A DNA stretch of 64,000 nt from the sequence record KT184316.1; one strand, 5' to 3'. The position numbers were made by a program, and so were the translations under genes. The notes beneath the pieces were generated by a model. The model had not been told where the DNA came from. It did not search any database and was given only the letters and a program-made list of their open reading frames with translations. Positions 7,171 through 8,830 of this stretch are shown piece by piece; the stretch's first letter is position 1, and every line of letters begins with the position of its first letter. This DNA is from Enterobacteria phage XTG1.

Positions 7171-7430
7171 TACTGCCATCCTTCCATACCTTACCTTACC
7201 ACACCTAACCATACCTAACCAAACTACACCATACAATACCTTGTTAAAAGACCCTTTTAAAGACCTTTTAAAAAGGTAAGTCTCATTTTAATGTAGCTGA
7301 GACTAACTACCCGCACTGAACCCGACCTTACCGAACCCTACCTCACAACACACCACCATACCGGACAAAACAGCACCTTATTAAAAGACCCTGTTTAAAG
7401 ACCTTTTAAAAAGGAGCCTCCGAAGAGGCT
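7171..7430. repeat. Intergenic repeat A: G-depleted tract of ACCTTACC/ACCTAACC-type octamers, palindrome ACCTTTTAAAAAGGT, conserved hairpin and minus-strand terminators
   Basis: Plus strand almost free of G over 7171-7245; perfect 15-bp palindrome 7264-7278; hairpin agtctca…tgagact 7280-7305; hairpin gagcctc/gaggctc 7412-7428 with T-tract on the minus strand; ~70-bp block near-identical to repeat B. Confidence 0.7.
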
Positions 7431-7441
7431 ACCTAGTCAAC

Positions 7442-7882
7442 TTAGAAAGGTTTTCTACGTTGCTTGTTAATGTTAGCTTTCATAGCAGCTAAATGGTTTT
7501 GCTGTTCAATCAGTCGTGAGCGTTCTTGATGGCTAAGTGCCATAGTGTTCACATTCTCAATCGCTTGAGTGGCTTGCTTTAAAGCTCGACCAATCTTGCC
7601 AGACATTTTACGTTTTGCAATAGTTGCTTGATGCTTAGGTTCAACCACACGATAACCAACACCCATTGAAGCAACCAGATAAATCTTCTCTTCTTTAAGA
7701 AGCTTCTCAATAAACTTCTCAAGTCGGTTTAGACGTGTAAGCGCATAAGCCTTCATTTCATCTTCGTACTTAACAATGTCACCTTGATAAGTTGGCTTCA
7801 CAATACCTAAGAAGGTGTCCATCTCAGAATGTGATACAGTGTCACCGTAACTGAACTTTGCTGCTAATGCTTTTGTATTCAT
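7442..7882 (-). CDS. Hypothetical protein
   Basis: 146-aa ORF; one of two genes bracketed by repeats A and B. Confidence 0.45.
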   Translation of the reverse strand: MNTKALAAKFSYGDTVSHSEMDTFLGIVKPTYQGDIVKYEDEMKAYALTRLNRLEKFIEKLLKEEKIYLVASMGVGYRVVEPKHQATIAKRKMSGKIGRALKQATQAIENVNTMALSHQERSRLIEQQNHLAAMKANINKQRRKPF

Positions 7883-7884
7883 AA

Positions 7885-8487
7885 TTAAACGTTACCTTCT
7901 GAAATAACTTCTACAGAAAAACGACCAAAGCGTGGACGCCAATCACCTACACCACAAAGGTTACCAGCATTTTCCAGAACCATCAGAAGTTCCTCTCGGG
8001 TGATTTGCTCTTCATCGAACATCAAACCAAACTCTACAGACCAGTCACGGAAGATTGGACGGTAGCTCATAACTCGTGCTGTACCAATCTTAACAGACTT
8101 AGCATAGATAAAGTCTGGATTCTTAGCGAGTTCTTGTGGGTTTGCTGGACAGTTCTTGATAGTCATTGGGAAGACTACATCTGTCAGCATAATAGCTCGG
8201 TCAATTACCTTACCAAGTTTGTTGAGTTTTGCACCAGACTTGATACAAGCCTCAATCATCTCACCGTTCATAACAAAACCTAGCTGCTCATCGTAGTAAC
8301 AAGAGGTTACCAGTTGGCTTTCTGCTAAGAGCGCATAGTCTTCGTCAGTCTTTTTACGTTTACTGGACAGAGACTTGTGATATTTTGTCAGAGGGTTTAA
8401 CGGGTCTGACAGCGTATCAGCGTGGCTCAGGAAAGGACGAGTACCAGTGATTTTGATATTTAACAGTTTCATAGCATTTAGCTCCAC
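7885..8487 (-). CDS. Hypothetical protein
   Basis: 200-aa ORF; SD ggag before ATG on the minus strand. Confidence 0.45.
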
Positions 8488-8565
8488 ACTTTAGTTGATT
8501 GTTAAGTTGTTTGTAAAGAACCCTCAATAGAAGACTCTTTAGAAACTTGGTAGATTTTTAATGTG

Positions 8566-8830
8566 GCTACTACCATCCACCCATACCTTACCGAACCTTA
8601 CCCTACCCTACCAAAACGCACCTAACCTAACCGGACACTACCTTATTAAAAGACCCTGTTTAAAGGCCTTTTAAAAAGGTAAGTCTCATTTTAATGTAGC
8701 TGAGACTAACTACCCATACTTTACCTGACCGAACTAGACCCTACCTCACCAGACATAACCGCGCCAAACCTTACCGCGCCATACATCACTTAAAAACCCT
8801 CTTAAAAGACTCTTAAGTGATGCTGGTGAG
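8566..8830. repeat. Intergenic repeat B (paralogue of repeat A)
   Basis: Same octamer tract; shared block ccttattaaaagaccctgtttaaag(g/a)ccttttaaaaaggtaagtctcattttaatgtagctgagactaactaccc; palindrome CCTTTTAAAAAGG 8667-8679; further inverted repeats catcacttaa…ttaagtgatg and ggtgagta…tactcacc. Confidence 0.7.

Follow-up and report, generated by a model that had tools for sequence, protein, structure and literature searches.

What is the role of two long non-coding regions that resemble each other, are poor in G on one strand and enclose a pair of genes in the genome of Enterobacteria phage XTG1 (KT184316.1)? A preliminary description of 64,000 nucleotides of this genome (hereafter the window), based on the bare sequence, had drawn attention to these regions and to the two genes of unknown function between them. 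It is very likely, as judged from our analysis, that the locus represents a complete VIPR system (Viral Interference Programmable Repeat) of type II and of the SUSP1 clade, which belongs to a Felix O1-like phage, is transcribed from the minus strand and carries guides directed at a satellite element. The assignment to type II is made because both proteins, Vipr and Vap1, are near-identical to those of phage SUSP1. VIPR was already described in two preprints from 2026 (bioRxiv 10.64898/2026.04.26.720920, 10.64898/2026.04.26.720927) and in an entry of the PDB, and the feature of the window adds no new kind of system to it. All coordinates given below are positions in the window, and the VIPR locus as well as its neighbors are read on the minus strand.

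According to the preprints, VIPR consists of a minimal RAMP protein of about 20 kDa, Vipr, an accessory gene, vap, and guide RNAs, termed vrRNAs, which comprise 9–16 YNNGG repeats and a constant 3' tail that forms a pseudoknot in the SUSP1 clade. The published vrRNAs lie on the vipr strand in long flanking intergenic regions. Each repeat takes up one Vipr protomer, with GGY buried and NN exposed, and the NN dinucleotides pair with DNA dinucleotides that are one skipped base apart, leading to an R-loop triplex and to repression of transcription. The skipped base tends to be the wobble position of a codon, and the natural guides of the SUSP1 clade are mostly directed against an Escherichia coli satellite phage. 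Expression of vrRNAs of about 100 nt, their co-purification with Vipr and silencing were reported for SUSP1 and P. fulva only, and for SUSP1 the vrRNA units were shown to be necessary for Vipr-dependent silencing (bioRxiv 10.64898/2026.04.26.720920/.720927).

The Enclosed Genes Encode Vipr and Vap1

The first enclosed gene, vipr (7885..8472, minus strand; phrog_4652), encodes a RAMP family protein of 195 aa. The second, vap1 (7442..7882, minus strand; phrog_5926), starts 3 nt after vipr and encodes the Vipr accessory protein of 146 aa. That two genes are bracketed by the non-coding regions was stated correctly before, while the span of 7442-8487 given for them needs a correction: the first start is most likely the ATG at 8472, and not the GTG at 8487, because the solved SUSP1 protein begins with MKLLNIK. 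The products are also no longer of unknown function. In a phmmer search, Vipr of the window matched PDB 36pp_D, 'SUSP1 Vipr protein', over its full length with 191 of 195 residues identical (E=2e-128), and a profile built from 40 Vipr homologs led to 36pp as well (E=5e-80); thus family profile and single protein arrive at one and the same solved structure. Vap1 differs in a single residue (145/146 identical) from the product of the gene that follows vipr at the same position in SUSP1. Pfam gave no significant domain for either protein, and PHROGs returned only families of 'unknown function'.

An alignment read by eye shows that Vipr of the window keeps H17, K33, R39, E71, M72, K82, G87, K88, R138, C173, D177, W178, and R179, the residues that the structure preprint names as RNA or DNA contacts (bioRxiv 10.64898/2026.04.26.720920/.720927). 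T175 of the preprint is V175 both in our protein and in the solved sequence. Throughout the family alignment, G174, R179, G183, and F185 of the G-loop motif are invariant, P180 and R184 nearly so. The family comprises 519 clusters and has a fixed length of about 190 aa. An AlphaFold2 (AF2) model of Vipr (pLDDT 94.5, pTM 0.87) was compared by Foldseek to a PDB copy older than the Vipr entry: Csm3 and type VII Cas7 were the best matches, and nearly all of the top 50 were Csm3, Cas7, Cmr, or Cas6. Vap1 is predicted to bind DNA, and co-expression of vap1 was found to enhance protection (bioRxiv 10.64898/2026.04.26.720920/.720927).

The Flanking Regions Contain Four Tracts With a Five-Nucleotide Code

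Every element named in the preliminary description was found where it had been placed, and two paralogous non-coding regions do flank the two minus-strand genes, at 7152-7430 and 8549-8822. Nevertheless, their architecture differs from that of the preliminary description, which saw one repeat of about 260 nt per region, built from ACCTTACC octamers. Each region is composed of two units of about 137 nt, and the period within the tracts is five: a pentamer Y-N-N-G-G on the minus strand. The alignment of the repeats reflects this, as 7183-7277, 7320-7414, and 8585-8679 are mutually 67–76% identical, 7256-7380 and 8659-8783 share 79% and 7150-7218 and 8547-8615 share 78% identity. The motif ACC[N][AT]ACC occurs 19 times inside both regions, once at 8207 within vipr and six times elsewhere in the window if both strands are counted. 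The claimed depletion of G on the plus strand is real, yet uneven: the individual tracts contain 0/53, 4/58, 7/70, and 8/75 G, and 7170-7249 alone stays within a limit of one G per 60 nt. Overall, the plus strand of the tracts consists of 35–44% C and 0–11% G.

Four minus-strand tracts of 10–15 YNNGG pentamers were delineated, in which GGY is kept and NN is essentially random. The tract of vrRNA-a (8709..8783) has 15 units, which give the dinucleotides AT GC AA TT GC TA CT GA AG CT TC CA AA and include two constant units, and that of vrRNA-b (8583..8640) has 11 units plus TAT (AG CC TA TA GC TT AG AG AA TC AA). Downstream of vap1, the tract of vrRNA-c (7306..7375) comprises 14 units (GC TT CC AT GG GT GA AG TC AA CG TC) and that of vrRNA-d (7186..7238) 10 units plus TAT (AT AT GT TT TA AT TA GT AA AA). 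Sorted by phase, the 50 pentamers of the window show Y in 48/50, two mixed positions, G in 39/50 and G in 47/50, which is far removed from what chance would produce. Runs of at least five perfect YNNGG units are found at only four sites in the window, all of them on the minus strand. Tract and tail together predict vrRNAs of about 87–115 nt.

For comparison, we used a set of 16 related loci, to which SUSP1 was added later, again reading the minus strand. From 15 related phage loci, 44 unique tracts with 535 pentamers were obtained. Here, Y amounts to 95% (T 86%, C 9%) and the last two phases to 81 and 93% G, with 0.09 bits at each N. Tract lengths of 8–17 units were observed, and all but two tracts consist of whole pentamers. 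Between phages the tract sequences are hypervariable, the elements before and after them (heads and tails, see below) nearly constant; the tract of vrRNA-d is identical in phages tootiki and Mushroom. A scan of 6000-10000 against Rfam at E<=1 returned a single sub-threshold chance match outside the VIPR region, and consequently Rfam 15 lacks the vrRNA family.

Could such tracts act by their chemistry, as Rho rut sites on a C-rich antisense RNA, as a two-tetrad G-quadruplex or R-loop origin on the G-rich sense strand, or as binding sites of a TRAP-like ring protein that attenuates transcription from GGU-NN repeats? The plus strand is indeed C-rich and G-poor, the tracts lie within a block of replication genes, and a triplet with a 2-nt spacer resembles TRAP sites. 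However, none of these functions requires the exact pentamer register, a pyrimidine after GG, a pseudoknot at the 3' end or linkage to a RAMP protein, and none predicts that the NN strings match other elements. We give these ideas next to no credence. The TRAP-like idea was right only in spirit, the binding protein being Vipr. Other candidates were discarded because none of them accounts for a strict register with random NN, or for the pseudoknot and the tie to a single protein family, namely antitermination of the boxA/boxB/boxC type (GGTCTTTAAACA vs. GCTCTTTAACAA), a Shine-Dalgarno-like ribosome sponge, a primase recognition array, and a Chi-like or RecA-preferred hot spot.

The linkage of tract and protein extends beyond Felix O1-like phages. 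A search of IMG/VR with nothing but the pattern (GGTNN)7GGT gave at least 120 loci, among them Felix-like contigs and plain microsatellites. Among the loci listed, irregular GGTNN tracts occur in many unrelated viral contigs, and tblastn revealed a vipr homolog of 24–38% identity at about 40 non-Felix loci; where coordinates were checked, it is located on the G-rich strand, about 20–170 nt from the tract. Thus YNNGG tracts also stand beside distant vipr homologs in unrelated viral contigs. For the same loci, tblastn detected no tract association of the ligase, the 127-aa protein (p127) or the helix-turn-helix (HTH) regulator from the neighborhood of the VIPR locus, and a single weak match for Vap1 (p146; L118). 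Two of the tract-rich IMG/VR loci had no BLASTN match among GenBank phages.

One further IMG/VR contig, 3300029288_001872 (189.6 kb; L028-L031), carries at least 10 irregular GGTNN tracts of 15–20 units. In L031, genes of a sugar-metabolism type have such tracts immediately behind their stop codons and on their coding strand. The pieces L028-L031 contained no vipr homolog. The contig may represent another VIPR type, or vipr may be encoded elsewhere on it.

Pseudoknot Tails, Heads, and Transcription Signals

Each tract is followed by a conserved 3' pseudoknot. The tails of vrRNA-a (8682..8713; H-type, S1 GTAG/CTAC, S2 AGTCTCA/TGAGACT) and vrRNA-c (7279..7310) belong to class H1 and are followed by TACC and a run of five T, at 8681-8673 in the case of vrRNA-a. 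Those of vrRNA-b (8549..8582; S1 GTGG/CCAC, S2 GGTAG/CTACC) and vrRNA-d (7152..7185; S1 AAGG/CCTT, S2 GGCAG/CTGCC) represent classes E2 and E1, respectively. Together with H2, these classes have a common topology, S1a-S2a-S1b-loop-S2b. Among 20 distinct tails of the four classes, 98.9% of the alignment cells are paired and changes on both sides occur in 8/9 pairs, while slid controls of the alignment reach at most 42%. The differences between E1 and E2 are compensatory in both stems. Tail E2 also closes the single upstream vrRNA of SUSP1 and the vrRNAs carried by E. coli satellites.

In the preliminary description, a hairpin with the arms AGTCTCA/TGAGACT had been taken for part of tandem terminators. 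The arms are present as stated, at 7279/7304 and 8682/8707, but this hairpin is stem 2 of the pseudoknot and not simply a terminator. The AGCCTCTTCGGAGGCT hairpin with its T run after vap1 (7430-7415, minus strand) is a textbook intrinsic terminator and was called by the terminator scan; its T run is at the same time the palindrome of the next head. For the H1 tails, with a 7-bp stem, a 12-nt loop and the TACC spacer before the T run, the scan made no call. The T run directly after the H1 tail probably ends vrRNA-a, and generally the T runs behind H1 tails may end those vrRNAs. Tails of classes H2, E1, and E2 lack a T run.

Conserved spacers, here called heads, precede the tracts and were mapped by landmarks. 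Head A (8784..8822), in front of vrRNA-a, contains an inverted repeat with 10-bp arms, CATCACTTAAG..CTTAAGTGATG, and is homologous to head B, with which it shares TCTTyWAAnAGGG boxes; it is a candidate leader, processing or spacer element. Copies of head B precede vrRNA-b (8641..8679), vrRNA-c (7376..7414), and vrRNA-d (7239..7276), the first containing the palindrome CCTTTTTAAAAGG followed by TCTTTAAACAGGG and TCTTTTAATAAGG. A perfect palindrome had been noticed before, and indeed there are three copies of CCTTTTAAAAAGG, at 7264, 7402, and 8667, which are the only ones within the 64 kb.

Upstream of the first vrRNA, a sigma-70-type promoter, P (TTGACA-16-TATACT; 8853..8883, minus strand), scored 11/12 in our scan. 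It is found at the same place in 14/14 compared tract-bearing phage loci, those without vipr included, and is presumably in use. The two promoter-like sites of the preliminary description exist as well. One, TTTACA-18-TAAAGT, lies just upstream of vipr (8517-8488) and is a weak site, which scores 9/12 by its match to the consensus only. The other, TTGACA-17-TATTTT (7132-7104), would serve the gene of p127; it is located outside VIPR and is kept in phages with and without the vipr-vap1 cassette. In transcription order, the upstream spacer thus reads P, head A, tract a, H1, head B, tract b, E2, weak promoter-like site, and vipr, and the downstream spacer terminator hairpin, head B, tract c, H1, head B, tract d, E1, and p127 promoter. 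If the same landmarks are applied to SUSP1, one upstream and three downstream units result, in exact agreement with the small-RNA map of the preprints. The 12 repeats found in the upstream tract are those that were used for cryo-electron microscopy.

As a side observation, the -10 box of promoter P is located inside an 8-bp inverted repeat, GGTGAGTA..N24..TACTCACC (8826-8860), which brackets the predicted start site and is kept even in phages without vipr. This repeat may act as an operator or form a hairpin in the 5' leader.

The canonical terminator at 7430-7415, the promoter-like sites at 7132-7104 and 8517-8488 and the T runs behind the H1 hairpins are what one would expect if the repeats served transcriptional control, with tandem terminators followed by a promoter and with tract or palindrome as activator site or as switch between transcription classes. 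Yet an operator would not produce a strict 5-nt register with random NN and constant GGY over 535 pentamers. H2- and E-class tails do without any T run, and neither the covariation of the pseudoknot, nor the co-occurrence with vipr homologs in unrelated phages, nor matches to foreign DNA that are specific for one skip length (see below) would be predicted. Taken together, there is very little probability left for this explanation. An activator-binding region, a switch of transcription classes, and a passive recombination boundary had all been suggested before; none of them describes the function, and the G-poor tracts are best read as guide-RNA genes.

Guides Match Satellite Islands in E. coli

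Candidate targets were approached via satellites, which we found by their own vrRNA tail; seven E. coli loci (L138-L144) were then scanned locally. The tract of vrRNA-b with its E2 tail gave a match of about 100 nt in 141 E. coli chromosomes. The islands measure about 11.5 kb (e.g., L142 3779-15200), encode a large serine recombinase, a baseplate protein, and a tape-measure protein, and have entered either yecE (DUF72) or the interval from tonB to yciI. Satellites related to them were found in 547 of 5,426 complete E. coli genomes. A scan of intergenic regions revealed a vrRNA with E2 tail in three of the seven loci, and vipr was found in none of the seven. Since the examined satellites lack vipr, their guides would need the Vipr of a helper phage.

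The 141 satellite-bearing genomes also show that the vrRNA with its phage-type E2 tail is accompanied by a terminator of its own.

If the tracts are guides, their dinucleotides should fit satellite DNA under one particular spacing. We compared 46 guides from 15 phage loci with the seven satellite loci and counted matches of at least 80%. With a skip of one nucleotide there were 76 such matches, contributed by 30 of the 46 guides, in contrast to 5, 7, and 4 matches for skips of 0, 2, and 3 nt. Guides with shuffled unit order gave a mean of 9.7 and a maximum of 17 matches at skip 1. A first pass over three satellite loci had yielded 14 matches at skip 1 and 0 at other skips (shuffled mean 0.45). 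Thus independent code, run on a handful of loci, reproduces the published rule of a 1-nt skip.

Two guides of the window have convincing counterparts. Guide c matches 22 of 24 positions (92%) at skip 1 in the gene of a small serine recombinase (L138 15559-15593 and L140 12567-12601), and all skipped bases fall on codon position 3; its predicted target site is GCTTCACCAATTGGTGTAGACAGGTCGAACCCTTC. Guide d matches 18/20 (90%), 17/20, and 16/20 positions at a homologous site of three satellites (L142 12097-12125, L143, and L144). This site, predicted as ATGCTAGTATTGTATATATAAGTTAACAG, extends over the -10 box, the start site, and the beginning of the leader of a satellite promoter (TTGACA-17-TAGTAT) and is an ideal place for repression. 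Within the 64-kb window, none of the four guides has a self-target of at least 80%. A guide that is carried by two satellites was seen to match upstream of torZ at 81–85%, possibly by chance.

Based on these data and the published mechanism, the system of the window would work as follows. Four vrRNAs would be produced, two upstream and two downstream of vipr-vap1, their expression in this phage as well as their start and end points being deduced from the elements described above. Vipr would polymerize on each vrRNA with one protomer per repeat, sequestering GGY and presenting NN. The NN dinucleotides would then read double-stranded DNA, skipping every third base, and the Vipr-vrRNA complex, sitting on the DNA, would block transcription. 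The guides would be aimed at the satellite of about 11.5 kb integrated in E. coli chromosomes, one of them at a satellite promoter and one at a serine-recombinase gene. Silencing of the satellite would presumably benefit the phage.

Several points weigh against this interpretation. The supporting papers are preprints, and the system of the present phage is known from its sequence, the work on RNA and binding having been done on others. The published VIPR model leaves the conserved heads and the CCTTTTTAAAAGG palindrome without an explanation. The target of guide c lies in satellite remnants disrupted by insertion sequences (L138, L140) and not in an intact element. Finally, guides a and b match the seven satellites at 77–81% only, which is within the range of chance, as the shuffled-guide control shows that matches near 80% arise by chance for short guides. 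The best sites are at 81% for guide a (L144 7946-7983 and L141 10068-10105) and at 77% for guide b (L139, in the tape-measure gene).

Distribution and Turnover of the Cassette

A survey of presence and absence, as proposed in the preliminary description, found the module genes in 117 phage records and the adjacent ligase in 295. While the ligases are 60–99% identical, all vipr-vap1 copies are 95–99% identical, although they are spread over three genera including Suspvirus and Mooglevirus. This conservation suggests recent horizontal spread or an unusually strong constraint. About half of the Felix O1-like phages carry the cassette, with one to three vrRNA units per side depending on the phage. 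Among the compared loci, no module without the repeats was seen.

The reverse situation exists: in Felix O1, finno, and RPN213, promoter P and head A are followed by a single tract and tail E1, as if the outer ends of the two arrays had been joined. The complete genome of Felix O1 (L145+L146) contains neither vipr nor vap1 (tblastn E>0.3) and no run of five perfect units. What it keeps of promoter P, head A, tract, and E1 tail (57632-57913; L003 2921-3202) is located between ligase and ORF87. The tract is decayed, GG being present in 6 of its 10 units, and the whole looks like a remnant left behind when the cassette was lost. In Michonne and the Erwinia phages, VIPR elements are absent altogether, as locus comparison revealed. 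REP10 (L014 2632-3041) in turn has an E1-class tail on the upstream array, joined to the flank that usually follows E2; this chimeric E1/E2 tail is a recombinant between tail classes. The guide of REP6 corresponds to guide d of the window plus one extra GGTAA unit.

Such polymorphism is also what passive homology arms would cause. According to this explanation, the GT-rich repeats would be recombination hot spots preferred by RecA, which move a two-gene moron in the manner of PeSL cassettes (introduced below) and are otherwise without function. In favor of it, the cassette varies in its presence (117 records compared to 295 for the ligase), genomes of the Felix O1 type have the appearance of a precise deletion from one outermost unit to the other, there are one to three units per side, REP10 has its chimeric tail, and vipr-vap1 is 95–99% identical across genera whose ligases are 86–93% identical. 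However, neutral arms would not keep GGY while NN is randomized, nor would they maintain a covarying pseudoknot, and the NN strings fit satellite DNA under one skip rule. In addition, the vrRNA units of SUSP1 have already been shown to be needed for Vipr-dependent silencing. We therefore regard purely passive arms as most improbable; recombination is real, but a by-product or a means of repertoire turnover. The mobile cassette of the preliminary description survives insofar as there is a discrete two-gene module, present or absent among relatives, while its repeats are working parts and not mere boundaries.

Returning to VIPR, one might speculate how its guides are renewed. Heads and tails could serve as recombination cassettes, and exchange or duplication of units together with slippage by pentamers could generate new guides when phages infect the same cell, with the satellites taking part in the exchange. 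This process would replace the adaptation of CRISPR and would occasionally delete vipr-vap1. The variation from one to three units per side, the 5-nt steps, the guide of REP6, the tail of REP10, the conserved vipr-vap1 and the orphan tract of Felix O1 are compatible with such guide shuffling, which we put forward tentatively, as a possibility that is rather less probable than its opposite.

Genomic Setting and Other Features of the Window

The interval 6600-9200 matches 243 phage records at 91–94% identity. Nearly all of these belong to Felixounavirus, the Felix O1-like myoviruses that infect E. coli, Salmonella, and Shigella. All genes from about 4.4 to 11 kb are encoded on the minus strand. 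In transcription order, the gene for DNA ligase (10201-9065) comes first, followed by an open reading frame (ORF) of 62 aa and the long upstream spacer before vipr; after vap1 and the second long spacer, the gene for p127, a signal-peptide protein of 127 aa (6676-7059), is reached. The neighboring ORFs encode the ligase, small proteins and an HTH regulator. The Felix O1 genome paper lists other repeats, promoters, and terminators, but not the YNNGG tracts (PMC3185647).

The slot between ligase and promoter P (8877-9065) varies among phages (L002, L005, L006, L010, and L013 compared). It holds a basic 62-aa ORF (phrog_5428) in the phage of the window and in SUSP1/SUSP2, an unrelated hydrophobic ORF of about 49 aa in tootiki, REP6, bumzen, VpaE1, and finno, and is empty in Felix O1, Mushroom, REP10, and HY02.

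Elsewhere in the window, 52100-53000 contains more than 25 copies of an iteron of about 10–11 nt of the (C)TTGTTAAGA type on a strongly C-poor plus strand. This array has no relation to the VIPR tracts; it might serve as an origin or a terminus, or bind a regulator. At 14680-14900, two TTGACA boxes and short repeats of the CTTAAAAG type come after a stretch poor in G; this is the divergent region adjoining the DNA polymerase gene, in which the Felix O1 paper places divergent early promoters (PMC3185647). A phage tRNA cluster (Pro, Glu, Met) starts at 63474-63803, as in Felix O1.

Comparison With Known Systems

VIPR is a recently reported form of RNA-guided DNA recognition with a non-contiguous code, which was proposed to predate CRISPR. 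The present locus illustrates that it can be recognized from raw sequence, by in-register runs of YNNGG, a pseudoknot tail, and a RAMP gene of about 190 aa. Its annotation matters because in GenBank records both spacers are bare or carry short 'repeat_region' features. Furthermore, the set of guides may influence how therapeutic Felix O1-like phages behave in E. coli or Salmonella strains with satellites, which matters for the choice of such phages.

The closest known system is the type II VIPR of the Escherichia phage SUSP1. Vipr is 98% and Vap1 99% identical, the genome slot from DNA ligase to the 127-aa gene is the same, and so are promoter P, the head and tail elements, the YNNGG vrRNAs with 3' pseudoknot and the predicted prey, the E. 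coli satellite family. In contrast, the phage of the window belongs to Felixounavirus and SUSP1 to Suspvirus, the arrays are arranged as two upstream plus two downstream units compared to one plus three in SUSP1, and all four guides differ from those of SUSP1; the system of the window is known here from its sequence.

Class 1 CRISPR-Cas backbones (Cas7/Csm3/Cmr4) have the RAMP fold in common with Vipr, likewise form a polymer on a guide RNA, whose bases are flipped at regular intervals by a thumb of the protein, and use a variable guide capped by a constant structured handle. Nevertheless, the locus is not CRISPR, although the fold of its effector is related. An array of identical repeats and unique spacers is not present, the repeats being pentamers and units of about 137 nt, and neither cas1/cas2 nor other cas genes were found among the neighboring ORFs. 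Unlike CRISPR, VIPR has a period of 5 nt with two informative bases per unit, reads its target with a 1-nt skip and belongs to a virulent phage, with a satellite as its prey.

As a cassette, vipr-vap1 resembles the phage morons reportedly described by Hendrix and Juhala and the PeSLs of T4-type phages, which are attributed to Arbiol, Comeau and Krisch (2010). Like these, it is optional, has promoter-like and terminator elements of its own, is flanked by repeated intergenic sequence and is present or absent in close relatives. PeSLs are promoter plus stem-loop units that are not known to act as guides, whereas the flanking repeats of vipr-vap1 are functional RNA genes. Finally, the Bacillus TRAP sites comprise about 11 conserved triplets with non-conserved 2-nt spacers and bind one subunit per repeat. 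The vrRNA shares the triplet, the 2-nt spacer and the single protein subunit per repeat with them. However, TRAP sites have spacers without information and lead to attenuation of the transcript that contains them, whereas in vrRNAs the information resides in the spacers and is directed at foreign DNA. The proteins have no homology.

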